64,000 bases of DNA. Source: a virus. Within the stretch, counting starts at the first letter, position 1; every line of letters starts with the position of its first letter. The stretch is taken from IMG/VR virus record IMGVR_UViG_3300027668_001405, positions 64,001-128,000 of that record, one strand, 5' to 3'. The notes below the pieces were generated by a model that saw nothing but the letters and a program-made list of their open reading frames with translations, was not told where the DNA came from and ran no database searches. Shown in pieces: positions 9-35,461 of the stretch. The translations under genes were made by a program, and so were the position numbers.

Positions 9-1025
9 ATGCTTGGTGCTCCATTTCCACCTGAAACATTTGATTGGCATAAGGACGAAGAAACTCGTCGTGTAATGCGACAGATTTTTGAAGAAACAGC
101 AGAGGACATAGAAGTGCTGTCGGGGATATTAAAGGACAAAGGCATCGAAGTGGTGCGTCCTAAGAATATATTTACAATCACAGGTGAAGAGCAGATTCAA
201 TTACCTTGGATGCATTGCGGATTTCCAAATCATCCGTTAATGCCTAGGGATACGTTAATGCCTTATGGCAATACAATATTTGAACTGTTTACAGGTAGCG
301 ATAATCGCTACTTTGAGAATCTGGCCTACTACGATCATTGTTCGCAATGGTTTAGAGAAGGTGCAGGTTGGGTTAGTATGCCAGGAGTACTAGTAGAAAG
401 TGGTAAGAAGTACGACCACTTTGTTAAAAACAATCGAGTACTATATCATGCGGCTAACATGATTAAGTGCGGAAGTCACGTTTTGTTTAGCCAACCCTAT
501 GAGGGAGACAACAAACGTGGCAGAGGTACGGAGCTGGGCCGTGAATGGATTCAACGTGAAATAAAGTTGCGATATCCTAATACCAAATTTTTGGACATTC
601 CAGTAGGAGGACATATCGATGGCAAAATAGCACTACTAAAACCTGGCGTACTAATGACTTGGAATAAGAACTGGGTTCCAGAAGAAATGAAACACTGGCA
701 CATTATAGAAGTGGCTGATGAATTTGATATGCCACAGGATTTTCAACAAACTCGTAAACAACGTTTCCATAAAGATTATGTAAGCAAGTGGCTTAGTCAT
801 TGGGTAGGTTGCCCAGACGAAAGTGTGTTTGACGTAAACGTATTATCACTAGATGAAAATACAGTTATATGCACAGGTAAAAATGAGGCCGCTTTTGCTG
901 AGATGGAAGCACATGGTATCGAACCAATTTACTGGAACTTTAGACACCAGTATTTTTGGGACGGTGGCATACATTGTTTAACAAGTGATATTGTTCGAGA
1001 AGGCGAGTGTGAGGACTATATCTAA
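9..1025 (+). CDS. Amidinotransferase (glycine / inosamine-phosphate amidinotransferase family); probably 5'-truncated by the window edge
   Basis: PRD, HIDG and C-terminal GGIHCLT motifs. The frame is open back to base 3 (K-V-M-L-G matches the N-terminal VIVG strand), so the true start is likely upstream. Confidence 0.85.
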   Translation: MLGAPFPPETFDWHKDEETRRVMRQIFEETAEDIEVLSGILKDKGIEVVRPKNIFTITGEEQIQLPWMHCGFPNHPLMPRDTLMPYGNTIFELFTGSDNRYFENLAYYDHCSQWFREGAGWVSMPGVLVESGKKYDHFVKNNRVLYHAANMIKCGSHVLFSQPYEGDNKRGRGTELGREWIQREIKLRYPNTKFLDIPVGGHIDGKIALLKPGVLMTWNKNWVPEEMKHWHIIEVADEFDMPQDFQQTRKQRFHKDYVSKWLSHWVGCPDESVFDVNVLSLDENTVICTGKNEAAFAEMEAHGIEPIYWNFRHQYFWDGGIHCLTSDIVREGECEDYI

Positions 1026-2072
1026 ATGCATTGGGCCAGACAAGTACATAATTTACAATTAGATATTTCTAGTCATTGTAATGCGGCTTGTGGTGCTTGT
1101 GTACGAAATAAAGATGGAGGAATAACAGAACCTCAACTAAGTCTAGATAATTTTGATGTTGCGTTATGGAAGCGTTTAGCATCAGAAGACACACGTGGCT
1201 GGTATGTAACTAAATTAACATTGAATGGTAATTGGGGTGATCCAATGATGCATCCAGATTTGATTGAGATGTTAGAAATATGGAATTATCATCACCCAGA
1301 ATCTTCGTTGTTTATTGCAACAAATGGAAGTATGCGAAGCAAACAGTTTTGGTTAGATCTTGCTAGAGTTTCTAGACAGTTTCCAAATTCTAAAGTTGAC
1401 TTTGCAGTTGATGGGTTAGCGGATACACATCATTTATATAGAAGAAAAACTATATTCTCTAAGCTAATAGAAAACATAAAACATTTTACAAGTGCCCAAG
1501 GCAATGCATGTATGATGATGACTGTGTTCAAACATAATCAACATCAAATTGAAGATGTAAGAGCATTAGCCGAAGAAACAAAGTGTAGGACATTTGTAGC
1601 AAGACGCAGTCACAGTGACGACATGCACATTAAAACTGATACTGAAGACTACACAATGTATGCTGGAGATACTAAGCAGTACAAGCAACAAACAAGATTT
1701 GATCAAGGTTGGAACAATAGTGATATCCGTGATGCTAGTGTGTATGGTCAAATTAACGAGCAATTTGATACACTATATGAATTTGCAGAGGATAGCAAGT
1801 GTCCTTGGTATAAGGATCAAGAAATACAAATAGACCCTTGGGGTGTTGTATGGCCTTGTTGTCATATAAGTCTACTAGGCGTAGATTTGGATAAACATAC
1901 ATTGACAGATTCAGCAGATAATAGTATAATAGAAGCTAGGAAGTCTAATAACTTGCACAACTATAGTCTGACTGAAGTACTATATAACGAATGGTTCTCA
2001 ACTACTGTACCGAATGCAGTAGAGAATGCATCGTGGCAGATATGTAGAAATAATTGCGGAGTATGTAAATAA
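1026..2072 (+). CDS. Radical SAM protein with C-terminal SPASM/twitch domain
   Basis: CNAACGAC (CxxxCxxC), GNWGDP, TNGS, VDG; C-terminal CPW...GVVWPCC...CRNNCGVC. Confidence 0.9.
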   Translation: MHWARQVHNLQLDISSHCNAACGACVRNKDGGITEPQLSLDNFDVALWKRLASEDTRGWYVTKLTLNGNWGDPMMHPDLIEMLEIWNYHHPESSLFIATNGSMRSKQFWLDLARVSRQFPNSKVDFAVDGLADTHHLYRRKTIFSKLIENIKHFTSAQGNACMMMTVFKHNQHQIEDVRALAEETKCRTFVARRSHSDDMHIKTDTEDYTMYAGDTKQYKQQTRFDQGWNNSDIRDASVYGQINEQFDTLYEFAEDSKCPWYKDQEIQIDPWGVVWPCCHISLLGVDLDKHTLTDSADNSIIEARKSNNLHNYSLTEVLYNEWFSTTVPNAVENASWQICRNNCGVCK

Positions 2073-3325
2073 TGTATAACAACCCAATGTTAAATGATTC
2101 AAGATATCCAACGTGCTTGGCACCTTGGAATGCTCTTACGATCAAATGGGGTGGAGCAGTACTTCCTGATATTATATACAATGGCAAGTTTGGAAACATT
2201 ACAAGACAAACGCTACCAGAGATATTAAACAGTGACGAAGCAGTTGCATTACGTAAGTCGCATGCAAGTAGAATTATTCCACCTGCGTGTTTAGCATGTA
2301 CTAAGAAAGAGAAAAGTGGTAAGAGTCGTAGAATGTATTTCTGGGACAAACTAGATGTAGATGTTAAAAAGGGCAGTATTAAAAATACAGCTAACAGTAA
2401 GCCAGACATACGTTACTTAGATTTTACTATCAGTAATAAATGTAACCTAGCATGTATACATTGTAATCCATTTGTAAGTACAGGCTGGACTAAAGATGGT
2501 AAAAAGTTAAATAAAGAAAAGCCGGACTATTGGGAACAATCACCTATTGGTTATCATGGCGTTGAAGATATGACGTTTTTGGATAACTTGTTTGCTGACC
2601 CTGAATACTTTCGTAACCTACAATGGGTTGCGTTAAGAGGAGGAGAGCCATTGTATGACGAGAGTTGTAAAGCAATCCTACAATGGTTTATTGACCAAGG
2701 GCTAGCTAAGAACATTATGCTAGATATCAGTACAAATGCTACAGTGTTTGACAATGACTTCCAAGAGATATTTAAGCACTTTAAACACATTGAGCTACTT
2801 ATTAGTATTGAAGCAGTAGACGAACTGTACAGCGTTGTACGTGGAGGTAAGACTACCTCATTTGAGCAACTAGAAGATAACATTGAAAAGTTTTATACAT
2901 ACGATAACATTGAAGTTGTGTTTGCCGTTACAGTAATGATTACAAATATATTTGGATTAGATAAAGTATGGAATTGGTTTAAAGAAAAGCATATGCACAG
3001 AGCTAGTATTAGCATGAGCAATGTTGTAGTTAACCCAGCCTATCTTAATATTGCATATATGCCAGATGTACTAAAATGGATTATGCATGACAAGTTACTA
3101 CAGATACCAGATCAAAGTATTTGGCCTAAGGGTAGCTATCATTCAGATGAGATACATTATCAAACTGGTATCCATGCTATACGTGATGGATTGCAAGTTG
3201 AAGTAGATGAAGAACTACAAGAAAAGCAATGGAGTCATTTTGTTAAATATACTAAAGACCTTGATAGATTACGAGGCACAGATACATTTAAATTAATTAA
3301 GGAATTAGCTTTATACAATGAATAA
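2072..3325 (+). CDS. Radical SAM protein with degenerate N-terminal twitch domain
   Basis: CNLACIHC, RGGEPL, STNAT, ISIEA. N-terminal CLAPW...CLAC is present but the usual PCC reads PDI. Confidence 0.9.
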   Translation: MYNNPMLNDSRYPTCLAPWNALTIKWGGAVLPDIIYNGKFGNITRQTLPEILNSDEAVALRKSHASRIIPPACLACTKKEKSGKSRRMYFWDKLDVDVKKGSIKNTANSKPDIRYLDFTISNKCNLACIHCNPFVSTGWTKDGKKLNKEKPDYWEQSPIGYHGVEDMTFLDNLFADPEYFRNLQWVALRGGEPLYDESCKAILQWFIDQGLAKNIMLDISTNATVFDNDFQEIFKHFKHIELLISIEAVDELYSVVRGGKTTSFEQLEDNIEKFYTYDNIEVVFAVTVMITNIFGLDKVWNWFKEKHMHRASISMSNVVVNPAYLNIAYMPDVLKWIMHDKLLQIPDQSIWPKGSYHSDEIHYQTGIHAIRDGLQVEVDEELQEKQWSHFVKYTKDLDRLRGTDTFKLIKELALYNE

Positions 3326-4265
3326 AATACAATATGGCACAATGGATAAGCCATTATCAATTAATAATCCAGACTTTACAAAAACAGGAAACAGTGTATG
3401 GAATCAACAGTACATGGAATACCTGACAGAAAATTACTTTCCTAATATTGATCCTGCTACACTGCCACAAGAACAAGATACATTCTTAGCAAACTATCCA
3501 AAATGGATTGCTAGTAGTAAGCTGAACAAGTTCAAAGGACTAGATGCATTTAAGCACAGGTTTGTTAGCTTAGGTGTAACACAGGCACTTGACTATTGGC
3601 ACTATTGGTGTCAAGCTAATGGATATAACTTAAAAGTATATAGAGGTGAGTACCCGTACAATAGAGATGCACAAATTAATAACCCAATGGAATGGGGAGA
3701 TAGCATTGATGACATTCCACTACAAAAAGGTGACGCAGTAATAGTAAGTGTTCCGTTTAGTGGTACAGGTAAAAAACCAGAGCATTGGCAAAAACTAATT
3801 AATACATGCAACGACCTTGACATTCCAGTGTTTGTTGATTGTGCATGGTTTGGTACATGTTTTGGTATTGAAATAAACTTAAATGAAGAATGCATTAAGA
3901 TGGTTGCATTTAGTACTACCAAAGGATTAAGTTGTGGAAACTGGCGCAGTGGAATTACTTTCAGTAGAGAAAATAAAGGAAGCCTGGCAGTACAAACAGA
4001 ATGGTATCATGGGATACATCTTAACTTAGCTATTGCTAATAGTTTAATGAAGGAATTTAGTCCTGACACTATTGCAAAGAAATACAAAGAAGCACACGTA
4101 GCAGTATGTGAGCATTATGGGTTTGAAACAACAAATACAGTACACATTGGTATAGCACCCGCAGGCCCAGATTGGGATGCGTATCATAGAGATGGTACTT
4201 ACAATAGAATTAATATTGCTAAAGCAATAAAGCGTTACAAAAACAAAGGCAACTTTTATGAGTGA
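3318..4265 (+). CDS. PLP-dependent aminotransferase-like protein (fold type I)
   Basis: VFVDCAW (Asp-x-Ala) and FSTTKGLSCGNWRSG (Schiff-base Lys, SxSK...R.G pattern). Confidence 0.65.
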   Translation: MNKIQYGTMDKPLSINNPDFTKTGNSVWNQQYMEYLTENYFPNIDPATLPQEQDTFLANYPKWIASSKLNKFKGLDAFKHRFVSLGVTQALDYWHYWCQANGYNLKVYRGEYPYNRDAQINNPMEWGDSIDDIPLQKGDAVIVSVPFSGTGKKPEHWQKLINTCNDLDIPVFVDCAWFGTCFGIEINLNEECIKMVAFSTTKGLSCGNWRSGITFSRENKGSLAVQTEWYHGIHLNLAIANSLMKEFSPDTIAKKYKEAHVAVCEHYGFETTNTVHIGIAPAGPDWDAYHRDGTYNRINIAKAIKRYKNKGNFYE

Positions 4266-4710
4266 TAAACCTATTAATATTACTACATCTAGATCTAATG
4301 ATTTTCCGATAAGAGCTAATTATATGTTTGACAACATTGGCCCAGGAAATTGTGAAGATATTATTTGGCAAAATGTAGTAGATACAGTAGGCGAAATTGA
4401 ACAGAATGAAATTGGTGTAGGTGTAACTCAAAGTTATCAGTACACAAAATTACATGACAAACCAATTATTTTAACAAAATGGCAAGGTATGAAAACAGCT
4501 AATGGACCCGAGTTTAGAATTGGATTAGGAAAAGGCATACCAGGTAGTAAACAAACTCCACCTATAATGTCTGGAAACTTTAAAACGGGTGTTCAAGTTA
4601 ATAGTACACTATCAATACAATCAGTTAAACTAGGCAGTAGACAAGGTAAGTTTTGTATTCAAACAGATGGTAAATGGTATGCTATTCAAATAGGAGATCA
4701 AGTTGAATAA
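4258..4710 (+). CDS. Hypothetical protein
   Basis: 150 aa ORF overlapping both neighbours in the operon; no recognised motif. Confidence 0.6.
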   Translation: MSDKPINITTSRSNDFPIRANYMFDNIGPGNCEDIIWQNVVDTVGEIEQNEIGVGVTQSYQYTKLHDKPIILTKWQGMKTANGPEFRIGLGKGIPGSKQTPPIMSGNFKTGVQVNSTLSIQSVKLGSRQGKFCIQTDGKWYAIQIGDQVE

Positions 4711-5836
4711 ACTACCTGACAATGCATGTGCATATCCTTTTAAGGCAAGTATGTTGATGCATGGTCAACCGGCAACACCTTGTTGCAGATTTCATACTAG
4801 GTTTCTTAAAGGCAATGGGTTTACTGAAATACGTGAAACAATGATGCGTAATGAATGGCATCCAGGATGTTACAAATGTAAGTCAGATGAAGAAGTTAAA
4901 GGTAGCAGTATGAGAACTGAAGCTGACGAATTCTTTGATGACTTTGATGACGTAGTACGTTTAGAGTACTTAGAAATAACTGTAGGCAGACTTTGTAATT
5001 TAGCATGTCTAAGTTGTGGTAGTGATTTTAGTACTACATGGGATAAAGATGAACTTGCATTAGGCATTAGTTCACCAGAGAAGATTAGCAAATTAAAAGA
5101 AGTACAGGAATACGATTTAGATAACATGGACCTAGATAATTTAAAACATATTAAGTTTATAAAAGTAACTGGTGGAGAACCGTTCTTGCATAAGCAGTTT
5201 TTAAATTTACTAACTAGACTAGCAGACAGTGGATTAGCTAAACAAATAGACATAGAAATATTTACAAATTGTACATACTATCCAGAGAAGAAGCTAGAGC
5301 TTGATAGCTTACTAGCGTTCAAACTAATACACATAAGTCCTAGTATTGATGGATATGGAACTACAAACGACCTCTTAAGATACCCTTCTAAGTGGAATAA
5401 AATTGAGGCAACACTTGACAAGTGGATAGAGCTAAAAGTAGCTACAGGACGCTTACACATAGCCACAGCCACCACTGTAAGCGTTATTAACGCCCCACAG
5501 CTACATGAGTTCATACATTGGGCGAGAATACATAAAGGAATAGATGTCGTGTTACAGACGGTATTTGAGCCACATTATTTAAGCGTAGAGCATTGGCCAA
5601 ATTGGTTCAAGCGTACACTAAAGTTAACAATTGATCAACAGTACACAGGCTTTAATAAGAACGCAGGTAAGTTTAAAGCTAGTCATAAACTATTAAAACA
5701 GTTATGTGAAACAAATACTACAACAGATAAGAGTGTACAATACGTAATAGAATTAAAGAAGATGCTGTCACATAGAGGGCAAGATATTAACATGGCACCT
5801 AAGTTTGCTAAGATATTGGAGTATCATGAAAGATAA
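4703..5836 (+). CDS. N-terminal twitch-domain radical SAM protein
   Basis: CAYPF...PCC...CYKC, then CNLACLSC, TGGEPF, TNCT, SIDG. Confidence 0.9.
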   Translation: MNKLPDNACAYPFKASMLMHGQPATPCCRFHTRFLKGNGFTEIRETMMRNEWHPGCYKCKSDEEVKGSSMRTEADEFFDDFDDVVRLEYLEITVGRLCNLACLSCGSDFSTTWDKDELALGISSPEKISKLKEVQEYDLDNMDLDNLKHIKFIKVTGGEPFLHKQFLNLLTRLADSGLAKQIDIEIFTNCTYYPEKKLELDSLLAFKLIHISPSIDGYGTTNDLLRYPSKWNKIEATLDKWIELKVATGRLHIATATTVSVINAPQLHEFIHWARIHKGIDVVLQTVFEPHYLSVEHWPNWFKRTLKLTIDQQYTGFNKNAGKFKASHKLLKQLCETNTTTDKSVQYVIELKKMLSHRGQDINMAPKFAKILEYHER

Positions 5837-7061
5837 TAAAGAATTAAAAAAGAGTGAGACATTCTGTATGTTACCATTTATGCATATATATGGAACAGCA
5901 GGTGGCGACTTAGTGCCGTGCTGTGAAGCACAGGAAACTCCATTAAACAACCCAGGCGAGACAGCTCTAGAAAGTTGGAACAACGACAACTACAAAGAAC
6001 TAAGACGTGCTTTATCAAATGACGAAAGACCAGATCGCTGTGAAGTGTGCTGGCACAATGAGGACAGTGGAGTAGTAAGCAATCGCAAGCAATGGGAAGA
6101 CGACAATTGGGAAACGTTTTCTAATGAGATAGAAGTTAATGACGATTGGAGTGTTAACAATTCACCTAAGTGGGTGGAACTAAAAGTAAGTAATTTTTGC
6201 AACCTAAAATGTATTATGTGCAGTACGCATAGTAGTTACAAGCGTGTTAAAGACTTAGACATTATAAGCAAGTACACAGCAGATGGATATGAAACTAGAC
6301 TTTTACGCCCAACTACTTTATTTGCAAGTTTAAATGAATGGCCCGAGTTATGGGAAAATGTTCATACACTACAATTTACAGGTGGAGAACCAATTATTAA
6401 CCAAGAGCATTATGACTTGCTTGAAGGGATACCTAAAGACATACGAAAGAATATAAAGTTACGTTACGCTACAAACCTAAGCATGATTAAGTTTAAGAAA
6501 TATGACTTAGTAGAAATATGGAACGAGTTTGCCGCTGTAAATATTAAAGTAAGCATGGACGGCATCGAAGACGTGTACAATTATATTAGACAAGATGGTG
6601 ATTGGGATACAGTATATGCTAACATGCTAGTACTGAGCAGTGAACCTACAATTAATTTAGCAGTAGGCATTACAGTACAATCACATAACGTATTTCATAT
6701 GCCAGAGTTTTATGACTTCTGGGCAGACAATATAGTTAAGCTAGATTTTATTACAGCTAACGTATTACACACACCTAAGTATTTAAGTCCAGCACTTTGG
6801 CCTGCTAACGTTAGGAAGCCTATAGTTGATAAGTTAAAAGAAGCATTGCCCAGACACCCAGAAATGAGAAAGTTTATTACTTACATGTTAAGAAATAAAC
6901 CAAATGCATTGAACTATTCAAAGATGCGTAAGTATACCAGAGATTTAGAAGCACGATATCCTAAAGAAATTACATTAAAAAGTATGCTTAAAAAGTATCT
7001 TAAAATAAAACTAGAAGGCATGGACATAGTTGATGAGAGGTTGAAGAATGAAAAAAGGTGA
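5826..7061 (+). CDS. N-terminal twitch-domain radical SAM protein
   Basis: FCMLPF...PCC...CEVC, CNLKCIMC, TGGEPI, TNLS, SMDG. Start placed at the second Met (5826); the ORF track gives 5805. Confidence 0.9.
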   Translation: MKDNKELKKSETFCMLPFMHIYGTAGGDLVPCCEAQETPLNNPGETALESWNNDNYKELRRALSNDERPDRCEVCWHNEDSGVVSNRKQWEDDNWETFSNEIEVNDDWSVNNSPKWVELKVSNFCNLKCIMCSTHSSYKRVKDLDIISKYTADGYETRLLRPTTLFASLNEWPELWENVHTLQFTGGEPIINQEHYDLLEGIPKDIRKNIKLRYATNLSMIKFKKYDLVEIWNEFAAVNIKVSMDGIEDVYNYIRQDGDWDTVYANMLVLSSEPTINLAVGITVQSHNVFHMPEFYDFWADNIVKLDFITANVLHTPKYLSPALWPANVRKPIVDKLKEALPRHPEMRKFITYMLRNKPNALNYSKMRKYTRDLEARYPKEITLKSMLKKYLKIKLEGMDIVDERLKNEKR

Positions 7062-8334
7062 AAAGGATTGGGACTATCAATTTGTAAGTGATTGCGAAAT
7101 TGTGAATGTCTTTATTCCTAAGAATACTCACCTATCAGGTCACGAAGAATTAAAACAAAAGCTATTGTTATTACAGCAAGTTGAGTGTGATAATCACTTG
7201 ACATCAAGCATAGTTAACCTGTATAATACAAGTAGTATTGAGTGGATTGAACACGTTAGAAAAATGGGACACAAGTATGTTGCATTTTGGTTTGATGGCT
7301 GCTGGCCTAAATCAGATGGCATTGAAAAGAAAATACTAACATACATTAATAGACTTGAGAAGAAAGATTGGGTAACCGCAGTGCATCCAAAGTACTTGGA
7401 TAGTTTAATGTTATTGAACATTGACGAGTTTATTGCTTGGCCTGCTAAAGCACCTAACTTTGGAACATACGCATTTTGGGCAGAGAATTGGATTAGTGAT
7501 TGTACTGTAGAGTTAAGCAAAACTATAGAAAGAAACATTGTAGTTGGTGCTCCACAATCAGACCCACAGAACTTTTTAAATGGATTAATGGATAAGAAGT
7601 ATACAGACCACACAATATCCAGAGGCGCTAGAGTTATTATTAAACGTAAGAATATACCTAGCAGTCCTATATACTTTGTTAACACAGAACGCAGTAGCCC
7701 AACAGTAGCAGATGCAATAAAACACACAGTATTCAAGCAGTATGTAGGCGCAGTGGCTGGTTTTAAGCTTCTATACTACGCTTACACGTACGGTATTGAT
7801 ATAGACAGCACTAAGTTCGTCTGGTATGATTTCGACGCAAACAGCGTACAATTTAAGCGTGACACTATTAAAAATTGGGATGGAAATGACTATCCTACAT
7901 GGGTTAAGGAATGGGTACACGCACATCCAGAAGCAAATGCAGAATTACTAAAACACGTTGATAAAGAATGGTTAAATATAGTAAAGCAATTCGGCGGAAA
8001 GCAACAGTGGTTAGACTTCTGGGTTCAAGTACAGATGTGTGAACATGAGTTTCTTACTGTTGACTTAGTTAATAATCACAAGGAAATAACAGACAGATTA
8101 GTTAATGGTGCAAGTACATTCTTTTGGAGCAGTAACATATACAGCTATGTATTGCTAAAAGTAATAAGCAAACCATTTACATTAGAACGCAGTTTTGCAG
8201 AGTTAATCACAAGGCTACAACAAATAGAAACATGTTGGTTCTCAGGCACTGATCCCAATGACAACGATTTAACATGTGATGTTAAATGGATTCTAGGATA
8301 CAGTACTAATGACAGCATAGGAACAGGAATATGA
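7048..8334 (+). CDS. Hypothetical protein, paralog of 8331-9713; possible C-terminal SAM-binding Rossmann-like domain
   Basis: Shares VAFWFDG/LAVLWAEG, WYDFD/WADFS, VDL/VNL and SSNIYSY/CSNIWLY blocks with the next ORF. The fold call is inference. Confidence 0.55.
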   Translation: MKKGEKDWDYQFVSDCEIVNVFIPKNTHLSGHEELKQKLLLLQQVECDNHLTSSIVNLYNTSSIEWIEHVRKMGHKYVAFWFDGCWPKSDGIEKKILTYINRLEKKDWVTAVHPKYLDSLMLLNIDEFIAWPAKAPNFGTYAFWAENWISDCTVELSKTIERNIVVGAPQSDPQNFLNGLMDKKYTDHTISRGARVIIKRKNIPSSPIYFVNTERSSPTVADAIKHTVFKQYVGAVAGFKLLYYAYTYGIDIDSTKFVWYDFDANSVQFKRDTIKNWDGNDYPTWVKEWVHAHPEANAELLKHVDKEWLNIVKQFGGKQQWLDFWVQVQMCEHEFLTVDLVNNHKEITDRLVNGASTFFWSSNIYSYVLLKVISKPFTLERSFAELITRLQQIETCWFSGTDPNDNDLTCDVKWILGYSTNDSIGTGI

Positions 8335-10564: not shown

Positions 10565-10566
10565 TT

Positions 10567-12838: not shown

Positions 12839-12856
12839 TAGAAAGGGGAGAACAAC

Positions 12857-13537: not shown

Positions 13538-13546
13538 AGACACACT

Positions 13547-14110
13547 ATGAGAATAATTGCAACAGGAAACCCTAACTTTGGCGTAGCAAGTGCTATCGCT
13601 GAACGATGGCCAGAAACTACATTTGTTAATAGAACAGATTGGGGCTACGATTTATGCCAAGATGGATACAAAAAGAAGCTAGCAGAAAAGACTCTTAACT
13701 ATGACGTCTTTATTAACTGTTCCGCACTATGGCAGTACCACCAAACTCTCCTACTAGATGTAGTCTATAAAAACGCTTTAAAGAACCGTAAACGACTACA
13801 TATAGTTAGTTTAGGTAGCACTACTGACCGGGCCACTAAAGGCTCTGATTGGCACTATCAGCAAGAAAAGAAAGCGTTACGTAGTACAAGCAACGCATTG
13901 GGCTTAAAAAGCATATGGGCAGGCGGTCCTAAGGTAAGTTATGTTACATTTGGAACACTTGAGAACAATGCACACAAGCACCCAGGTAGAGCTGTAATGC
14001 AACTAAGTGAAGCAGTAGATATGATTGAATATGTAATTAGTCTTCCAGATCATTTAAACCTAAATGAAATAAGCATGGACCCAATACAAACAGAGTGGCC
14101 GAATGTCTGA
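13547..14110 (+). CDS. Short-chain dehydrogenase/reductase-like protein
   Basis: IIATGNPNFGVASAIA Rossmann start, DVFINCS, IVSLGS, YQQEK (YxxxK). Confidence 0.7.
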   Translation: MRIIATGNPNFGVASAIAERWPETTFVNRTDWGYDLCQDGYKKKLAEKTLNYDVFINCSALWQYHQTLLLDVVYKNALKNRKRLHIVSLGSTTDRATKGSDWHYQQEKKALRSTSNALGLKSIWAGGPKVSYVTFGTLENNAHKHPGRAVMQLSEAVDMIEYVISLPDHLNLNEISMDPIQTEWPNV

Positions 14111-15281
14111 AGATAAAATGTGCTACATGCCTTGGCACGGAATTACGCTGAGTGCTAATGGCGATATTAAACCTTGTTGTCAATTTAGTAACAAAGGACG
14201 TAGACCTAATACTGAACACGACACTATTATGGAAAACTTTAATAGTGAACGTATGCAAGAATTACGTGGACAGTTTCTAATAGGTGAACAACCTAAAGCA
14301 TGTAACAGTTGTTGGGAGAGAGAAGACTTAGTAGGCAAGAGTAGACGCTTATGGTTCAATGAAAAGTTTATGAAAGACGACGAAGCTTTTCAACAAGGAT
14401 ACAACCCGTCAGACCTAGTAGTACCTAATCCTAAATTATATCAAGCAGATATTAACTTGTCAAACGTATGCAATTTGAAGTGTCGTATGTGTGGAAGTTG
14501 GGCCAGTAACAGTTGGTTCAAAGAAGAAATAGCACTAGCAAAAATAGACAAACGTTATGAGAAGAATGAACGTGTTGTTCCAATACAACAATACGACTTA
14601 GAAGATTTACGCAATATGCTACCTCACTTGAAAGAAGTCAAACGTATAGACTTCAAGGGTGGCGAGCCTATGATGGCAAAGCATCACAATCAATTCCTGC
14701 AATGGCTTATTGAAGAAGATATGACAGACATAGAATTGTTTTACACTACCAACGGAACAGTACAGAATCCTAAAATTATGGACTTGCTCAAACACTTCAA
14801 ACGTGTTAGTATATGTTTTAGTATAGAAGGTACTGGAGATTTATATAGATACATCAGAGGCGGTAGGTATGACATAGAAGGTTTTGAAAAATGCGTAGCA
14901 GTTTACGACAAATTAGAAAACGTACAAATTATGTTTAATGTAACATTACAGAACTATAACGTATTCAACTTGCCTGAACTACATGAGTTTTTACACGATT
15001 TAGAAGATAAATATAACAGAGTAAGTGCTAAACATAGTTTTGGTACAATCTGTAATAAACCTGCTTACCTAAGCCCAATTAATTTACCAGACGATTTACG
15101 TGATCAAGCAGTTGAGCGTTTATCATTATATGAAGATTTCGACCAATTGGTAAAGAGTATGAATAAGCGTGTATTCGACCCAGAACTATGGGAAGTGTTT
15201 ATTAACTTTACTAACGACCTAGACAAAATGCGAGGAGACAGTGTGTTAAAATCTGTGCCTGAGCTAAAGGATCATTTTTAA
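14103..15281 (+). CDS. N-terminal twitch-domain radical SAM protein
   Basis: MCYMPW...KPCC...CNSC, CNLKCRMC, KGGEPM, TNGT, SIEG. Confidence 0.92.
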   Translation: MSEDKMCYMPWHGITLSANGDIKPCCQFSNKGRRPNTEHDTIMENFNSERMQELRGQFLIGEQPKACNSCWEREDLVGKSRRLWFNEKFMKDDEAFQQGYNPSDLVVPNPKLYQADINLSNVCNLKCRMCGSWASNSWFKEEIALAKIDKRYEKNERVVPIQQYDLEDLRNMLPHLKEVKRIDFKGGEPMMAKHHNQFLQWLIEEDMTDIELFYTTNGTVQNPKIMDLLKHFKRVSICFSIEGTGDLYRYIRGGRYDIEGFEKCVAVYDKLENVQIMFNVTLQNYNVFNLPELHEFLHDLEDKYNRVSAKHSFGTICNKPAYLSPINLPDDLRDQAVERLSLYEDFDQLVKSMNKRVFDPELWEVFINFTNDLDKMRGDSVLKSVPELKDHF

Positions 15282-16000
15282 TGCTAGTAGGAATTGAAGA
15301 CAACCATGCACCCAAAGACGAGTTACTTCGAGTAGAATGGAACTTAGGCAAACGTTGTAACTATAACTGTAGCTACTGTGGTAACGAACTACATAACAAG
15401 ACAAGCGACCATATGAATTGGGAAGTGTACACAGCTACAATTGATAAAATTGTTGCGGCAGCTAATGGCAAGAAGATTAAAATTAGTTTTACAGGTGGGG
15501 AACCATTTGTACATCCACAATTTATTGATATGATGAAGTATGCTAAAGAGAATGGCGTATACAGATTAAGTGTAACTACCAACGGAAGTCCACCACCAAA
15601 GATATATAAGAAAGCATTGCCGTACTTGCATTACGTAGTAATAAGCTACCACTTTGAATTTGCTTACCACGACAAAGTTATTAATAACATTGTAGGCATG
15701 TGGTCAGACATTCAAGAGTATCGCAAGCAAGATCAGTGGAAAGGTATGCACGTACACATTATGGCACTACCTGGAAAGCTAGCACAATGGCAAGAGATTA
15801 TAACAGAATTAAAAGACTGTGGAGTTGAATATACAATACGTAAAATTAGACCACGTGTTAACATGGCTCGAACAGGCTGGAACAAACCACATCAAGATGG
15901 AATGTTAGGGCAACACCCTACTCACGAAGAAACCGAGAAGTATGCAGGACAATATTATAGTCCGGAAGAAGAGGAATGGCTTACTGCCCAAAATGCTTAA
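15281..16000 (+). CDS. Radical SAM core domain only; N-terminal half of a homolog of 19875-21062
   Basis: EWNLGKRCNYNCSYC, TGGEPF, TTNGS, ISYHFE; no SPASM domain. Confidence 0.85.
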   Translation: MLVGIEDNHAPKDELLRVEWNLGKRCNYNCSYCGNELHNKTSDHMNWEVYTATIDKIVAAANGKKIKISFTGGEPFVHPQFIDMMKYAKENGVYRLSVTTNGSPPPKIYKKALPYLHYVVISYHFEFAYHDKVINNIVGMWSDIQEYRKQDQWKGMHVHIMALPGKLAQWQEIITELKDCGVEYTIRKIRPRVNMARTGWNKPHQDGMLGQHPTHEETEKYAGQYYSPEEEEWLTAQNA

Positions 16001-16619
16001 TCAATCAGATGACAAATTGGAAATTGAACTAACTAGCAAGTGTGCATTACAATGCCCAGCTTGTGCAAGAGTGACACAATCTGATATGAAACAAGAATGG
16101 GATGCAGGACATTTAAGCAAAGAATTATTATTTAGAATATGTGACACTACAAACTTTCATAGATATCAATTTGTAGGTTGTTACGGAGATCCTATATACC
16201 ATCCTGACTTTTTGGAAATATGTAAATATTTTATGGCAGCAGGTAAGAAGATACTAGTGCATACAAATGGTAGTGCAAAGCCAGAAAAGTTTTGGAAGGA
16301 AGCAGCAGACATAGTTTGGAAAGGATGTATATTTACATTCAGCGTTGATGGACTAGAAGATACTAACCACATATATCGTAAGGGTTCTAAGTGGAAGCAA
16401 ATATTAACAGCAATGAAATATATGGCTAGTATACCTAGAGAAAACAGACCAACATTAGAATGGAAGTTTTTAGTATTCCCATACAATAAGCATCAAATAG
16501 AAGAAGCACGTACACTAGCAAACGAGCTAGGGTTTACAAAGTTTGAAGCATGGGATAGTTATAGAAATGCTAATTCTTATAACGTACCAGCAGAGGAGCT
16601 TCATAACTATGTTTCATAA
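15993..16619 (+). CDS. Radical SAM core domain only; homolog of the N-terminal part of 1026-2072
   Basis: CALQCPAC, GCYGDP, HTNGS, SVDGL. Start placed at 15993; the ORF track gives 15942. Confidence 0.85.
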   Translation: MLNQSDDKLEIELTSKCALQCPACARVTQSDMKQEWDAGHLSKELLFRICDTTNFHRYQFVGCYGDPIYHPDFLEICKYFMAAGKKILVHTNGSAKPEKFWKEAADIVWKGCIFTFSVDGLEDTNHIYRKGSKWKQILTAMKYMASIPRENRPTLEWKFLVFPYNKHQIEEARTLANELGFTKFEAWDSYRNANSYNVPAEELHNYVS

Positions 16620-16938
16620 GAATTTAGATCCTCAGTGTAGAAAAGAGAACATGCAGGAAAAGAATAATATTCAGCTTAGTGCTACTGGTTATTTAAAACC
16701 TTGTTGTTTTTATGGTACAAGCATTAACTGGAAACAGCTAATGACATGGGCAGACAATCGAGGACTTGATATAGAGAATTTGAATATTACTAAACATAGT
16801 GTAGAGAAGATATATAACTCTCCATTATGGGCAAACATGTTGCTAGGACAAGTTACAGGCGACTTACCAACTCCATGTTGGGACCTGTGCAGAGTTAATA
16901 GCACAAATAAAATAGATGTAAAAAAACATGCAAAATAG
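16609..16938 (+). CDS. Free-standing SPASM/twitch domain protein
   Basis: PQC...GYLKPCC...PCWDLC; ATG at 16609 preceded by GAGGAG at 16593-16598. Confidence 0.75.
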   Translation: MFHKNLDPQCRKENMQEKNNIQLSATGYLKPCCFYGTSINWKQLMTWADNRGLDIENLNITKHSVEKIYNSPLWANMLLGQVTGDLPTPCWDLCRVNSTNKIDVKKHAK

Positions 16939-18235
16939 AGACCACGAACAACTAGCAATAAAGGAAGCTAAGGCCTGGTTACTCGAGCCTGGTAATAACT
17001 TCTGTGCTATGCCGTTTATACATATGGCAATTGAAGCCACTGGCGACATACGTCCATGTTGCATGGGCAAGCCTTTAGAAGGAATGAGTATAATAGGTAG
17101 TACAGTTGCAGAACAGTTCAGGTCTCCAATAAGAGAAGAGTTTGTAGAAAAATTTAGAAACAATTCAAAGCCAGCTGAGTGTTCAGCGTGTTGGAAAGAT
17201 CCTTTTATTAGAGCAAAGTTTTCAACCTCACCTGGAGCATTATCATCTACAATAAATTTTATGAACACTGGATCTATTGAGAAAGAACTAATATGGTTAG
17301 AGATTAAGCCGGGCAATAGATGTAATTTAAAGTGCAGGATATGTGGAGTACACAACAGTAGTGCATGGGCAAAAGATGCTAACTCATTACGCAATTTTAA
17401 ATTTGGCGAGAATGTTCCTTTTAAAGAAAGTGAAGCATTCCAAGTAACACAAGCTGGCGAGTGGATTGAAGATGAAAACTTCTGGACTCAACTGTCTGGA
17501 TTTGAGTCTATTGAGTTTTTACATTTTATGGGCGGAGAACCTTTTATGGTACCTGAACATTTTCAAATGCTAGAACACCTGGTTGCAATGCCACACTTGG
17601 ATACATCAAGAATAACGTTAGCTTACAATACAAATGGCACATATTTTCCTAGCGAAGAGAACTTAGAACTATATAAGAATTTTAAGAAAGTACATATGTC
17701 ACTAAGTATAGACGACTTTGGACCTAGATTTGAATATCAACGTAAACTAGCTGAATGGGACCAAGTAAAAGAGAACCTTAGAAAGTTTGCTTTATTAGGA
17801 GAAGATGATAAGTTCTTTGTTAATCTAGATCCTACTGTAAGTAACTATAACATATTTTACATGGCAGAGATTTGGGACGAGTTCACTAAACTTGGCTTTA
17901 GGTTTCAAAGAGGTGGATTGAATCATTTTGTATTTACTGGTCCAGATGCAATTATTAATATTCCAGTTGAGATGAAGAAAATAATAACTGATAAATATGA
18001 GTATGCACGTACAAATACAGGACTTGTTGAAGCCTATACAGTGTCAGCAATAGATTACATGAATAGTCAAAGACCAAATCCTGAAGCTTGGAGTGACTTC
18101 ATAAATAAAACTATGCACTTGGACAGTATCAGAAAAGAATCGTTTGAACAGACGTTTCCAGAGATGCATGCACTAATAAAGGGTACAGATGGTTTTAAGA
18201 GACAGATGGCTATAATGGAATCCATGAATGAATAA
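16928..18235 (+). CDS. N-terminal twitch-domain radical SAM protein
   Basis: FCAMPF...RPCC...CSAC, CNLKCRIC, MGGEPF, TNGT, SIDD. Confidence 0.92.
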   Translation: MQNRDHEQLAIKEAKAWLLEPGNNFCAMPFIHMAIEATGDIRPCCMGKPLEGMSIIGSTVAEQFRSPIREEFVEKFRNNSKPAECSACWKDPFIRAKFSTSPGALSSTINFMNTGSIEKELIWLEIKPGNRCNLKCRICGVHNSSAWAKDANSLRNFKFGENVPFKESEAFQVTQAGEWIEDENFWTQLSGFESIEFLHFMGGEPFMVPEHFQMLEHLVAMPHLDTSRITLAYNTNGTYFPSEENLELYKNFKKVHMSLSIDDFGPRFEYQRKLAEWDQVKENLRKFALLGEDDKFFVNLDPTVSNYNIFYMAEIWDEFTKLGFRFQRGGLNHFVFTGPDAIINIPVEMKKIITDKYEYARTNTGLVEAYTVSAIDYMNSQRPNPEAWSDFINKTMHLDSIRKESFEQTFPEMHALIKGTDGFKRQMAIMESMNE

Positions 18236-18590
18236 TTTTAAAAACTTAATCAAGCACTATGATGATAAACCGTCTGAAGAGGATAACGCAAACAATGTTA
18301 TGGCTCGTGATGAGAATGATTTCCGTGGATGGGAATGTTGGGCAGGAGTACAAAACATTACTATTAGTAATACGGGAGATGTGTACAGAGCAATATGTAA
18401 AGTGGGTGGTAAACTTGGAAACATTTATGATGGATTTGAGATGCCCCAAGAAACAATTATATGTAATAAGCCTAGATGTATTTGTTCAGCAGATGTGCAG
18501 TTATCTAAAGCGTTACCAGAGCACGTACATAAATTAAGAATAGGCAATGAATCAAACCAATTAAACTTTGATGACATATATAGATCATGA
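18228..18590 (+). CDS. Free-standing SPASM-like domain matching the C-terminus of 19875-21062
   Basis: NDFRGWECWAG...C...LGNI...C...CICSAD aligns with NKFKGWECSSG...C...LGNI...C...CVSSAD. Confidence 0.75.
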   Translation: MNNFKNLIKHYDDKPSEEDNANNVMARDENDFRGWECWAGVQNITISNTGDVYRAICKVGGKLGNIYDGFEMPQETIICNKPRCICSADVQLSKALPEHVHKLRIGNESNQLNFDDIYRS

Positions 18591-19885
18591 ACAATTATAA
18601 CAAATTTAAAGAACGAGCAATAGGCAAGCTACATGGGATGCCAGTAGACAAAGAAACATTTTGTCCACTACCATTTGTACATGTTAGCACAATGCCACAT
18701 GGTGAAGTTAAACTATGTTGTAGAGCTCAACCACCTAAGAACGGAACAAACCCTAACGTTAAGAATCCTGAGTTTAATCTTAAAGATTATTGGCACAGTG
18801 AATATATGAATGAGGTGCGTGATGACTTAATATTAGGTGTAAAGAATTCACAGTGTAGTAATTGCTGGAAGATGGAAGACAACGAAATTGTTAGTTTACG
18901 TATGAATAGAATTACTGACTTAATGGACAACGATACATACAAACAGAATATAAACAAGTACCTAGTAGAACGTGAAGTAGATTTTAGTATTCCACTAATT
19001 GAACTTAAACTAAGCAACGTGTGCAACTTTAAGTGTCGCATGTGTTGGCCAAAGGATAGTTCAAAGTGGGTAACAGACTGGGATAAAGTTTCTAAATTTT
19101 ACAGTGAAGGCGACCAGCGTTACATAGAAGAGATTGTAGATAGCAACGGCCTACGTAAATCTAGGGTAATGAATTTATATGAGAAGGATAAAGACTTTGT
19201 TGATCAATTACTTGAATTGATGTCAACAGTTGAAGAAATAGAATTTGCCGGAGGCGAACCATTAATGGATCCAATACATTATCGTGTATTAAACAACATA
19301 CCAAATCCTGAGAATGTTACACTAAAATACAGCACAAACCTAAGCATTATGAAGATGGGCAAAAACAACGTAATTGACTTGTGGAAGAAGTTCAAGAGCA
19401 TTAAACTTACAATTAGCATAGATGGATATAAAGATCTTAATGCTAAAATTAGACGTGGTGCTGACTGGGACCTACTAAAGCATAACATTGCACTTGTTAA
19501 AGAGCATTGTCCTAACATAGATGTAATCAAAGGATCAACATGTATTAGCGGTATGAACGCAGAAGACTTGGGCAAAACAGCTGAAGCTATTGTGTTTGAA
19601 TTAGGTATACATTGGCACACAAGTCGTGTACAATGGCCCGATTTTTTACATGCTAACGTATTAAGCCCTGTACAACTAAAACGCGGTATTGATAGCTTAC
19701 AGACGCTCTTAGACACCCTGCCGGGGCGTGATAACGTACCCAGACAGTTTATGATGGAAACACATATTAAAGGTGCAATGAGCTGGTTAGAGTCATGTAT
19801 AGAGAAAAACGAACACCACAACAAATACACAAAATTTACTGAATTTAATGCAAAAATAACGGAGATGGATACAAATGGAAAATAA
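18587..19885 (+). CDS. N-terminal twitch-domain radical SAM protein
   Basis: FCPLPF...LCC...CSNC, CNFKCRMC, AGGEPL, STNLS, SIDG. Confidence 0.92.
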   Translation: MNNYNKFKERAIGKLHGMPVDKETFCPLPFVHVSTMPHGEVKLCCRAQPPKNGTNPNVKNPEFNLKDYWHSEYMNEVRDDLILGVKNSQCSNCWKMEDNEIVSLRMNRITDLMDNDTYKQNINKYLVEREVDFSIPLIELKLSNVCNFKCRMCWPKDSSKWVTDWDKVSKFYSEGDQRYIEEIVDSNGLRKSRVMNLYEKDKDFVDQLLELMSTVEEIEFAGGEPLMDPIHYRVLNNIPNPENVTLKYSTNLSIMKMGKNNVIDLWKKFKSIKLTISIDGYKDLNAKIRRGADWDLLKHNIALVKEHCPNIDVIKGSTCISGMNAEDLGKTAEAIVFELGIHWHTSRVQWPDFLHANVLSPVQLKRGIDSLQTLLDTLPGRDNVPRQFMMETHIKGAMSWLESCIEKNEHHNKYTKFTEFNAKITEMDTNGK

Positions 19886-21062
19886 AGAAGACTTGAAATG
19901 GAGCGAATATGACTTTACTAAAACACCATACGATAAGTTGGTGCGTGTGGGTCAGCGTAATATTCTGTACCGCGACATGTTTACTGTTAGTTGGTTGCTT
20001 GGCCGTTTTTGCAACTATAATTGTAGCTACTGTTGGCCTTACGCTAGGAGTGGTAAAAAAGATCACAGACCTACTGAACTAAATTTAAAGACTATTGATG
20101 AGATTAAACGTCAAGCACGTGAACGTGGATTTAATAGTTTCCACTTTAGTCTAAGTGGAGGCGAACCAACTTTCCATCCAGGCTACTTAGACATGTTAAA
20201 GCATCTAAGTGATGATGCACATAACACAAACTATACAAGTGTACACATGACATCAAATTGTAGTCGTAATATGAAATGGTTTAAGACATATTGTGAATAC
20301 GCAAGTAAATTCCATCGTGCAAGTATTACAGCTAGTTTGCATACTGAACATGTTAACACACCTGAGAAGATGCAAGACTTGGCAGAGAAATTAATCATGT
20401 GTCAAGAACATGATGTACAGGTAACTATTAACATGGTTATGGTTCCTGATCTATTCCAAGAATATTATGATAATGCATTATTTTATCATAACCAAGGAAT
20501 TAACGTTACGCTAAAACCTCAATCAGATCCAACAGCAAGTAAAATTGTAGATGGTTACACACCTGAGATGTTAGCTAAGTTGCACAACGGTATGCCACAA
20601 CGTAGTTACACAGAAGCTAAAGCACAACATAAGCAGTTAGTGGTTAGACCTAAGCCTACATTTAAAATTGATAAAGACGATCATTATCGTAAGCAAACAG
20701 CGGCAGTGCCGTGGAATATGCAAGTAGAATTTAGAGACGATAAAGGTGATCCATATTACATGGACCAAGCAGAACGTTTTAATGCGTTTAACTTTAATAA
20801 GTTTAAAGGGTGGGAATGTAGTAGTGGATATCGTAGTATTATTATCCGTGAACCTGATGGAAGTGTGAAGCGTAGTTATAGCTGTCACGATCAACCTCTA
20901 GGTAACATTGAAACAGGATTTAAGTTGTTTGATGGACCTAAGGTGTGTACAACAGATTCATGTGTTAGTAGTGCAGATAGTAAAATCCCCAAACGAGCGC
21001 CGGGGACTAAGTTGCCTTTATGGCCAGGTGATAAAACATATGAGCATGGAACGTTTGACTAA
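19875..21062 (+). CDS. Radical SAM protein with C-terminal SPASM-like domain
   Basis: SWLLGRFCNYNCSYC, SGGEPT, TSNCS; C-terminal GWEC...C...C...C. Confidence 0.9.
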   Translation: MENKEDLKWSEYDFTKTPYDKLVRVGQRNILYRDMFTVSWLLGRFCNYNCSYCWPYARSGKKDHRPTELNLKTIDEIKRQARERGFNSFHFSLSGGEPTFHPGYLDMLKHLSDDAHNTNYTSVHMTSNCSRNMKWFKTYCEYASKFHRASITASLHTEHVNTPEKMQDLAEKLIMCQEHDVQVTINMVMVPDLFQEYYDNALFYHNQGINVTLKPQSDPTASKIVDGYTPEMLAKLHNGMPQRSYTEAKAQHKQLVVRPKPTFKIDKDDHYRKQTAAVPWNMQVEFRDDKGDPYYMDQAERFNAFNFNKFKGWECSSGYRSIIIREPDGSVKRSYSCHDQPLGNIETGFKLFDGPKVCTTDSCVSSADSKIPKRAPGTKLPLWPGDKTYEHGTFD

Positions 21063-27907: not shown

Positions 27908-28117
27908 TTACCACCATCCTAATGTTCTACCGTTGCCGGCTATAATTGCCATACAAGTTGCAACGTGTAGTACTATCCAAAATGTTCTAAACGCTAGTGC
28001 CTTTTTAACATCACTTTGGAGAATAGGCAAAAATTCTGGCTTGTCCTCGTCTGTAATCCCAATTGGCATACCTACTGTTCTAGCCCATACTTTTAAGAAT
28101 CTTCGTTGCCCACTCAT
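27908..28117 (-). CDS. Small hypothetical membrane protein
   Basis: KVWARTVGMPIG...FWIVLHVATC; C-terminal hydrophobic helix. Confidence 0.55.
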   Translation of the reverse strand: MSGQRRFLKVWARTVGMPIGITDEDKPEFLPILQSDVKKALAFRTFWIVLHVATCMAIIAGNGRTLGWW

Positions 28118-35460: not shown

Positions 35461-35461
35461 A

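Follow-up and report, generated by a model that had tools for sequence, protein, structure and literature searches.

The stretch of DNA analyzed here, the window, comprises 64,000 nucleotides (nt) and corresponds to positions 64001–128000 of a virus record in IMG/VR (IMGVR_UViG_3300027668_001405; linear, 137,797 bp), whose completeness is estimated by CheckV at ~40%. The record encodes a T4-type DNA polymerase (window positions 51009–53702) with 45–47% identity to jumbo-phage polymerases, and from its sequence the element appears to be a marine T4-like jumbo phage. Our subject is a run of 22 open reading frames (ORFs; orf1 to orf22) at window positions 9–21062, all on the + strand and tightly packed, 12 of which encode radical S-adenosylmethionine (SAM) enzymes. 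An earlier interpretation, made from the letters alone and here called the sequence-only reading, had described 22 same-strand and mostly overlapping ORFs, and this description holds, with 18 of the 21 junctions overlapping, one abutting and two gapped (9 and 18 nt). Two long overlaps of 59 and 77 nt are artifacts, because the longest-ORF starts had been taken; they drop to 8 and 11 nt with methionine starts that are conserved in relatives, which places the start of orf17 at 15993 (previously 15942) and that of orf18 at 16609 (previously 16543). The GC skew is positive across the run and negative from ~21 kb, where convergent genes begin. No terminator-like sites were found on the + strand inside the run, promoter-like sites occur at chance level (75 vs. 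74.5), and no Rfam family scored over threshold in the window and the 18 kb upstream of it.

The left edge at position 9 is an artifact of the window. The same-strand run extends further upstream, to a total of at least 29 kb, of which positions 9–21062 are the right-hand two thirds, and the upstream part holds three more N-terminal twitch radical SAM genes, a gene of the PNP/MTA-nucleosidase family, another amidinotransferase gene and genes without family matches. A putative metallopeptidase with a VWA-like domain (DUF2201; record positions 52985–54163) is encoded within this same-strand run as well, a few kb ahead of where its radical SAM genes start. Over the whole contig there are 22 radical SAM genes, i.e. 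15 members of the N-terminal twitch family NF033640 over its cut-off and seven others.

Radical SAM enzymes of the N-terminal twitch family

The CxxxCxxC motif is found in exactly 12 ORFs, the number given by the sequence-only reading, and all 12 match PF04055, 11 of them over its gathering score of 29.5; orf6 reaches 28.2 but is over the cut-off of NF033640 (N_Twi_rSAM, NCBIfam), which is set at 170 bits over the full model length. Hidden Markov model searches with PF04055, PF13186 and the N-terminal twitch model confirmed the 12 radical SAM enzymes and placed eight of them over the NF033640 cut-off, at 196–380 bits and full model length. These are orf3 (2072–3325, 250 bits), orf6 (4703–5836, 222 bits), orf7 (5805–7061, 311 bits), orf11 (10537–11619, 196 bits; the shortest, lacking the C-terminal helices), orf12 (11588–12838, 380 bits; the best family match), orf15 (14103–15281, 314 bits), orf19 (16928–18235, 272 bits) and orf21 (18587–19885, 297 bits). 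The remaining four (orf2, orf16, orf17 and orf22) match only the core part of the model, at ~40–46 bits. When aligned, the eight paralogs share an N-terminal cysteine module, followed by S-x-R, CNLxCxxC and an invariant GGEP, the SAM-binding motif. The N-terminal module has the form C-x17-CC-x27..50-CxxC in seven of the eight, and Pfam assigns it to SPASM, yet it contains only four to five cysteines, and because of this small number we read it as a twitch module, predicted to hold one auxiliary [4Fe-4S] cluster, rather than as a SPASM domain.

The eighth member, orf3, has three cysteines, and here the sequence-only reading, which had counted seven intact modules and one degenerate one, stands as to the numbers but not as to the degeneration. 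The CC pair of orf3 is replaced by D followed by I, V or A, and the same replacement is present in the orthologs of four related phages and two Bdellovibrionia genomes. Since the orthologs share this pattern and the ratio of nonsynonymous to synonymous substitution rates (dN/dS) of orf3 is 0.04, it is a conserved three-cysteine variant and not a product of decay.

The paralogs are strongly diverged, as had been proposed together with an old duplication and non-redundant roles, a view that the following three results bear out. Pairwise identity among the eight twitch paralogs is 21–30%, and all paralogs are under purifying selection (dN/dS 0.04–0.30). In a maximum-likelihood tree of 61 twitch radical SAM enzymes the 12 phage copies never cluster with one another, and nine of the 12 pair with one particular bacterial paralog, with support of 94–100 in the Shimodaira–Hasegawa-like approximate likelihood ratio test. 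Among the bacterial paralogs, which include those of a Bdellovibrionia genome designated G006 and those labeled Bd46 and Bd65, orf3 pairs with G006/Bd46 paralogs (support 99), orf6 with G006/Bd46/Bd65 paralogs (96), orf15 with G006 gene L100_11088 (99), orf19 with two G006 paralogs (98) and orf21 with G006 gene L100_13393 (99), while orf7 likewise pairs with bacterial paralogs (99) and orf11 has no resolved position. The bacterial partners in these one-to-one pairings lie in Bdellovibrionia or Parcubacteria chromosomes. The nine pairings, together with the failure of the phage copies to group, indicate that divergence of the paralogs preceded the separation of phage and bacterial versions, and the fact that each twitch paralog forms its own ortholog group shared with Bdellovibrionia argues that the paralogs do different jobs. 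Far from the run, a further NF033640 member (217 bits; window positions 54163–55395, - strand) adjoins the DNA polymerase gene; it forms a long branch without a placement in the tree.

C-terminal cysteine modules, split enzymes and accessory enzymes

Two radical SAM enzymes carry cysteine-rich C-terminal extensions, namely orf2 (1026–2072; PF04055 E 6e-8; cysteines 259, 278, 279, 340, 344 and 347) and orf22 (19875–21062; PF04055 E 5e-14), the last gene before the convergent genes. The sequence-only reading had called both extensions SPASM-type; the cysteine patterns are present as it described, but neither C-terminus matches Pfam SPASM at E<0.01. For orf2, partial alignments to SPASM maturase models were obtained, and its C-terminus aligns to the twitch profile at E 0.024 only (hhalign). 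For orf22, the relevant model is NF038073 (STM4011-family radical SAM; cut-off 200 bits), to which orf22 scores 35.6 bits and orf20 21.9 bits, both below threshold, so that orf22 and the orf16–orf20 pair described next appear from sequence comparison to be distant relatives only of that family. The identity of orf22 is 75–92% in all phage relatives and 58–62% in bacterial loci.

The small radical SAM gene orf16 (15281–16000; PF04055 E 6e-15) and the cysteine-rich orf20 (18228–18590) correspond to the N-terminal (core) and C-terminal halves of an orf22-like enzyme. The former aligns to residues 34–115 of orf22 (37% identity) and the latter to residues 288–376 (36%), and orf20 matches NF038073 positions 195–254. 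The two parts are fused as a 328-aa ORF in one contig (L022:9118–10104), split yet adjacent in another (L020:7656–8701) and in Bdellovibrionia G006 (L100:12295–13400), and separated in the present phage and close relatives by one to three intervening radical SAM genes. Because both halves have a dN/dS of ~0.06, they probably form a working two-chain enzyme.

A second divided arrangement is formed by orf17 (15993–16619 with the refined start; PF04055 E 3e-10; 28% identity to the core of orf2), which is a core-only radical SAM enzyme, and orf18 (16609–16938 with the refined start), a free twitch-type Fe-S domain. The latter has four invariant cysteines, aligns to the N-terminal twitch of the paralogs at E 1e-4 (hhalign) and matches PF13186 at threshold (21.8 vs. 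21.5 bits). The core-only enzyme and the free twitch domain are neighbors in both phage and bacteria, with the order reversed (twitch, then core) in Bdellovibrionia, e.g. L016:5581–6690. Complex prediction for orf17 and orf18 gave a score of 0.82, against 0.01 for the best control; 58 of 80 solved complexes attained the mark set for this score, as did 2 of 110 mismatched pairs. The prediction runs agree in at least 84% of contacts, the partner has a predicted local distance difference test (pLDDT) value of at least 80, and in the predicted interface the twitch hairpin pairs with the strand that precedes the SAM-cluster motif. The prediction supports, but does not show, docking of orf18 on orf17, and the pass may reflect likeness to single-chain core-plus-twitch enzymes that have already been solved. 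In this pair, the twitch radical SAM architecture appears to occur naturally as two chains. A programmed frameshift joining the two ORFs was considered and dropped, as a methionine conserved in three phages gives an ordinary 11-nt overlap, and the bacterial order is reversed. These results agree with the sequence-only reading in its two core-only enzymes (orf16 and orf17, the former being the core half of a split enzyme) and partly revise its two free SPASM domains, of which orf18 stands as a twitch-type domain, whereas orf20, which matches no SPASM model and does not resemble the profile of the N-terminal twitch, represents the C-terminal half of an orf22-like enzyme.

Interspersed with these genes are several accessory enzymes. 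The first gene, orf1 (9–1025), encodes the second of two amidinotransferases, the other lying just upstream of the window, and has 45–47% identity to Bdellovibrionales orthologs. A profile of orf1 with its bacterial orthologs found StrB1 (1bwd) in the PDB at E 1e-41, as well as SxtG, HsvA and AGAT, to E 1e-35; the cysteine motif FWDGGxHCxTxD and the H..D pair are invariant (H202, D204 and Cys323), and by these sequence features orf1 is judged to be a true amidinotransferase. Its solved relatives all act on small amines, and StrB1 itself is an inosamine-phosphate amidinotransferase. The product of orf4 (3318–4265; PF00155 E 9e-6) is a fold-type-I pyridoxal phosphate (PLP) enzyme, aminotransferase-like, with an invariant lysine in an F-S-T-T-K motif, an invariant Asp174 and 42–49% identity to Bdellovibrionales orthologs; matches to PDB sequences were weak only. 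A short oxidoreductase resembling short-chain dehydrogenases/reductases (SDRs) is encoded by orf14 (13547–14110), in which T-G-x3-G-x-A at the N-terminus and S...Y-x3-K are invariant and identity among relatives is 67–90%, with weak matches only to SDR families; a 187-aa gene of the G006 cluster is not an orf14 homolog. The Fe(II)/2-oxoglutarate (2OG) oxygenase orf10 (9704–10564) belongs to the Asp/Asn beta-hydroxylase family (PF05118, 42.6 vs. 22.6 bits, E 7.5e-11), has an invariant HxD...H iron triad (H198, D200 and H246) and an invariant R256, and weakly matches proline 4-hydroxylase and AspH in the PDB. Another oxygenase gene, just upstream of the window, also has a conserved HxD...H; no Pfam match at E<0.01 was obtained for it, nor any PDB match for its profile, including KdoO. 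A flavoenzyme of the nitroreductase family is encoded by orf13 (12857–13537; PF00881 E 4e-5), for which the PDB sequence search was empty or weak only; it is sporadic, with orthologs only in related contigs L001 and L013, and so is orf5 (4258–4710), a 150-aa protein without family match that is present only in L001, L013 and L014 among the related contigs.

Two further genes, orf8 (7048–8334) and orf9 (8331–9713), are full-length paralogs (hhalign E 4e-38 over 418 columns) with no Pfam, NCBIfam or PHROG match, and a PDB sequence search with orf8 was empty or weak. In the ESM Atlas the two-domain orf8 protein falls in unnamed clusters that are >90% viral. Its AlphaFold2 model is poor (pLDDT 55); in a fold search with this low-confidence model, residues 13–170 resembled UDP-Glc pyrophosphorylase (Z 8.3) and many GT-A enzymes (Z 5–6.4), and residues 228–426 resembled methyltransferase-like folds (Z 5–7), while Foldseek returned nothing at E<=0.001 and methyltransferases at E ~0.04–0.2. 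A GT-A/nucleotidyltransferase-like N-terminal half and a methyltransferase-like C-terminal half of orf8 and orf9 may be taken as a lead only. Bacterial proteins of 678–808 aa carry a 2OG oxygenase domain fused before an orf8/orf9-like domain (L046:12172–14394, L016:11955–13991 and L065:12623–15049), with PF05118 assigned to this domain in L046 and a weak match to PF03171 only in L016. Their fusion in bacteria and adjacency in the phage argue that the oxygenase and the orf8/orf9-like protein act together.

Downstream of the run, the window holds a homolog of phosphoribosyl pyrophosphate (PRPP) synthetase (28117–29064, - strand; phrog_619) and a gene with a strong match to the unnamed phage family phrog_12787 (34246–35508, - strand; E 8e-141).

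Relatives of the run in phages and Bdellovibrionia

Synteny among related phages was extensive. Fifteen related viral contigs keep 11 genes (orf3, 4, 6, 7, 8, 9, 10, 11, 12, 14 and 22) in the same order at 63–92% identity, whereas the variable block from orf15, which opens it, to orf21 is found in closer relatives only and is missing from the more distant ones. Related fragments carry 7–25 NF033640 matches each. For orf12 alone there are >1200 homologs at E<=1e-10, and the best 120 clusters are 50–89% identical and come from marine metagenomes, including Tara. Near-identical DNA (96–98% of sampled words) occurs in at least 14 marine runs from at least 13 studies. Pieces of the stretch are also present in contigs of four RNA libraries from three studies, with one metatranscriptome library covering all 30 bins; the RNA runs are available as contigs, which indicate presence in RNA libraries rather than transcription, strand or level, and the coverage fits transcription, with DNA carry-over also possible. 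Among 50,697 phage records, no match was obtained to the 21 kb by megablast or to orf22 by tblastn, and searches for related loci with orf9 and of genome contigs with orf15 alone found nothing; the alignment of the eight twitch paralogs offered no segment of sufficient conservation for such a search. A smaller set is present in the cultured Vibrio phage K566 (255 kb; OZ196521.1, 161548–168284), which has four twitch-type radical SAM genes in a small cluster with no homologs of the accessory enzymes, and could possibly serve as a minimal experimental model.

When one genome per prokaryote species was scanned for a pattern of conserved motifs, 78 loci were identified, most of them in metagenome-assembled genomes (MAGs) of Bdellovibrionales, where single genomes hold 7–20 family members. 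The family is carried by 49 of 121 sampled genomes of the order to which G006 belongs, many with at least eight copies, and by none of 14 model organisms. In G006, a stretch of ~30 kb (C1:745–776 kb of a 917-kb contig) encodes homologs of most genes of the run at 30–50% identity, namely orf1, 3, 4, 6, 7, 8/10 (fused), 10, 12, 15, 16, 17, 18, 19, 20 and 21, as well as of genes upstream of the window, and is flanked by cellular genes (a sigma-70 factor, a Ser/Thr kinase and a UDPGP-family enzyme). Taken together, the shared accessory genes and the paired paralogs point to an old, already diversified pathway that moved as a block between phage and bacteria, in either direction. We found no literature on radical SAM clusters of Bdellovibrio.

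Four MAG contigs (L019, L020, L022 and L088) look phage-like and are maybe phage DNA binned into bacterial MAGs, which are labeled Crocinitomicaceae, Bdellovibrionales MAG-22, Gammaproteobacteria MED685 and Rickettsiales MED657, respectively. L019 and L022 carry orf22 at 73–75% identity, L020 and L022 have a phage-like gene order, and L088 consists of 13 consecutive radical SAM genes. An 876-aa ORF in L020 (5029–7659) joins an N-terminal part of ~480 aa without assigned family to an orf15-like twitch radical SAM enzyme. A different pattern was observed in G008, a 1.9-Mb Bdellovibrionales chromosome, which carries tandem arrays of seven and nine twitch radical SAM genes (L097 6844–14781, L098 4617–8763 and L099 653–9774); twelve of these array genes form one recent clade, a young expansion unlike the old phage paralogs.

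Substrate class and comparison with known systems

We consider it about an even chance (probability roughly 0.5) that the 22 genes are part of a multi-step line of radical tailoring through which a sugar-type molecule acquires amino and guanidino groups; on this interpretation the substrate would probably be a sugar, a ulosonic acid, a cyclitol or a nucleotide-sugar. The accessory enzymes, i.e. the StrB1-like amidinotransferases, the PLP enzyme, the SDR and the Fe/2OG oxygenases, favor a small molecule of sugar type or a building block of a glycan, and the bacterial neighbors point the same way, in that they include family 2 glycosyltransferases (GT2), UDP-sugar dehydrogenase, UDPGP, RmlC/RmlD, TylF and carbamoyltransferase. 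In a tally of 148 sampled, de-duplicated bacterial neighbors, from which the four phage-like loci were excluded, GT2 is the commonest family (9/148), with WbsX, TylF, RmlC, RmlD and BacA also present. The most recurrent neighbor cluster is likewise a GT2, in 11 of 74 bacterial loci, a carbamoyltransferase and a major facilitator superfamily transporter recur too, and one of the G008 tandem arrays abuts a UDP-sugar (UDP-Glc) dehydrogenase, a GT2 and an AsnB-type amidotransferase. The sequence-only reading had left glycan, protein and small molecule side by side as substrates of such a line; the accessory enzymes and neighbors narrow it to the sugar-type side, and nothing specific to peptides was found.

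In the proposed chemistry, the SAM cluster of each radical SAM enzyme would abstract one particular hydrogen atom and the N-terminal twitch cluster would take or give an electron, with C-OH oxidation, epimerization, dehydration or C-C bond formation as the possible outcome at each position. Resulting ketones might be transaminated by orf4, and orf1 together with the amidinotransferase upstream might turn the amines into guanidines, with arginine as donor. The oxygenases would add hydroxyls, the SDR would reduce or oxidize, transfer or methylation of the sugar may fall to orf8 and orf9, and the upstream nucleosidase could clear the inhibitory by-product 5'-deoxyadenosine. The product might be destined for the virion, the surface of the infected cell or release as a free metabolite. 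A bolder version, in which a complete pathway of at least 25 enzymes is expressed in infection, builds a guanidino-sugar or aminoglycoside-like compound and was inherited from or donated to Bdellovibrionia as a block, is in our judgment doubtful.

Several points weigh against a sugar-type substrate. The GT-A-like reading of orf8 and orf9 rests on a low-confidence model with middling Z scores, the GT2 neighbor counts lack a matched background sample for enrichment, and neither a GT2 nor a CMP-sugar synthetase was found on five fragments of phage genomes, an absence of little weight because they are only 28–56% complete. The fold neighbors of orf12 count as many peptide-modifying as sugar-modifying radical SAM enzymes, and PF05118 oxygenases classically hydroxylate protein residues. 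We know of no precedent for at least 15 radical steps on one small sugar, and the literature holds no assay of any step. In addition, we found no characterized member of NF033640 and no paper on the N-terminal twitch/SPASM architecture.

Some of the same evidence would suit a line that instead modifies, after translation, a protein or ribosomal peptide whose gene lies elsewhere (for example a protein of the virion, or a peptide that is secreted), with each radical SAM enzyme placing a cross-link, epimerization or oxidation at a site of its own and the PF05118 oxygenase, a member of a protein-hydroxylase family, hydroxylating residues. The AlphaFold2 model of orf12 (pLDDT 85) has a radical SAM fold whose neighbors (Z 9.7–11.5) are led by the peptide maturases SkfB (Z 11.5), anSME (10.6) and CteB (10.2) and include BlsE, viperin and MoaA. 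The weak NCBIfam alignments are mostly to peptide maturases, and many diverged paralogs would suit many sites on one polymer. The top fold matches (SkfB, anSME, BlsE, viperin and CteB; Z 10–11.5) are, however, tied, with peptide and sugar/nucleoside enzymes mixed. Hallmarks of ribosomally made, post-translationally modified peptides (RiPPs), namely a precursor, a RiPP recognition element (RRE/PqqD), a leader peptidase or an exporter, had no Pfam or NCBIfam match in a scan of the 22 ORFs and of upstream genes. With all gaps <=18 nt, the run has no space in which a peptide substrate could be encoded, and no conserved small ORF is common to the phage run and the bacterial clusters, the small ORFs u2 and u6 (upstream) and orf5 being without bacterial counterpart; a precursor could possibly be encoded outside the run. 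StrB1/AGAT-type amidinotransferases, PLP enzymes and SDRs act on small molecules, and the bacterial neighbors are glycan enzymes rather than RiPP genes. Together these observations make a protein or peptide substrate unlikely.

Nucleotide or nucleic-acid chemistry, leading to a hypermodified protective DNA base or a viperin-style chain-terminating nucleoside analog, is suggested by weak matches of several paralogs to prokaryotic viperin (orf11 E 2e-11) and MoaA, by the presence of viperin, BlsE and MoaA among the top fold matches and by the PRPP synthetase in the window. We hold it to be quite unlikely, given that the viperin score is far under its cut-off (43 vs. 180 bits), that the run contains no DNA glycosylase, transglycosylase, kinase or polymerase-linked gene, and that the same cassette stands beside glycosyltransferases in bacterial chromosomes. 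The genes might also be a toolbox rather than one pathway, consisting of independent radical SAM enzymes that each act on a different host metabolite or defense molecule and are merely co-regulated. The content of the block does vary, with orf15–orf21, orf13 and orf5 coming and going among relatives, and the tandem arrays of G008, with as many as nine copies, are recent. Eleven core genes nevertheless keep the same order in 15 of 15 relatives, and in phage and bacteria alike the radical SAM ortholog groups travel with the same set of accessory enzymes, which is the signature of a pathway and renders a toolbox quite unlikely.

Radical SAM enzymes perform some of biology's hardest reactions, and eight paralogs (15 on the contig) of an uncharacterized family, each a conserved ortholog group, imply as many distinct new reactions. 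The phage is abundant, with near-identical DNA in at least 13 marine studies as noted above, so that the product would be made on a large scale in marine waters. The connection with predatory bacteria suggests a product for microbe-on-microbe attack, or a surface decoration common to both. If true, the bolder version described above would provide the first function for the N-terminal twitch radical SAM family, with >12 new radical reactions on carbohydrates, and its pathway of at least 25 enzymes would exceed in complexity all biosynthetic pathways known from phages. Cultured handles for such work exist in Vibrio phages K566/K567, Campylobacter phage CP220 and Bdellovibrionales.

Among known systems, the eight twitch ORFs resemble NF033640 in matching the full model, with the N-terminal cysteine module, CxxxCxxC and GGEP; what goes beyond this family is that one phage carries eight copies (15 on the contig), every one of them an ortholog group of its own. 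The Bdellovibrionia clusters, as in G006, are similar in having one-to-one orthologs of most genes, including the split orf16/orf20 and orf17/orf18 pairs, and differ in gene order and strand, in the fusion of the oxygenase to the orf8/orf9-like protein, and in flanking glycosyltransferase, UDPGP and sugar genes. In streptidine/2-deoxystreptamine aminocyclitol synthesis, a dehydrogenase or the radical SAM enzyme BtrN is combined with an aminotransferase and StrB1. The run has the same three classes (a twitch radical SAM enzyme or SDR, a PLP enzyme and an amidinotransferase), and StrB1 is the best solved match of orf1. In contrast to that system, no inositol-phosphate synthase or kinase was seen, orf4 weakly matches PF00155 and not DegT/StsC, and the radical SAM enzymes lack a sequence match to BtrN or to any other solved radical SAM enzyme, the orf12 profile finding no PDB chain at E<=0.001. 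BtrN, cited by the sequence-only reading as an example of a twitch-domain radical SAM enzyme, can thus be kept as an analogy only, and the likeness to aminocyclitol synthesis would be one of logic and not of membership.

The closest phage precedent is found in the Campylobacter phages CP220 and CPt10, which have 11–12 radical SAM genes per genome (11 in CP220) and a module of five such genes with a 'glycine amidinotransferase' that was considered a block acquisition (Timms et al. 2010, PMC2853527). Distant homology links the amidinotransferase of CP220 to orf1 (24% identity, E 1e-16), and the module adjoins two nucleotide-sugar-transferase-like genes and a PAP2 phosphatase. Unlike the enzymes of the present run, the CP220 radical SAM enzymes resemble orf17 and orf2 (core plus C-terminal cysteine domain) rather than N-terminal twitch enzymes; no PLP enzyme, orf8/orf9 homolog or PF05118 homolog was found in CP220, and the present cluster is three to four times larger. 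The cyanophage S-SCSM2R, a cultured T4-like marine phage with an amidinotransferase region (PMC12801897), encodes an amidinotransferase homolog (26% identity) with 2OG oxygenases after it, but there the amidinotransferase adjoins kdsA/kdsB, without the swarm of twitch radical SAM genes. That the CP220 module and the S-SCSM2R amidinotransferase both sit beside sugar-related genes adds to the case for a sugar-type substrate. The present run is therefore not new in kind, as CP220 and CPt10 set the precedent and NF033640 already models the family; what is new here is the ortholog-by-ortholog tree, the history of the split radical SAM enzyme, the three-cysteine twitch variant, the predicted core–twitch complex, and the figures for selection and prevalence.

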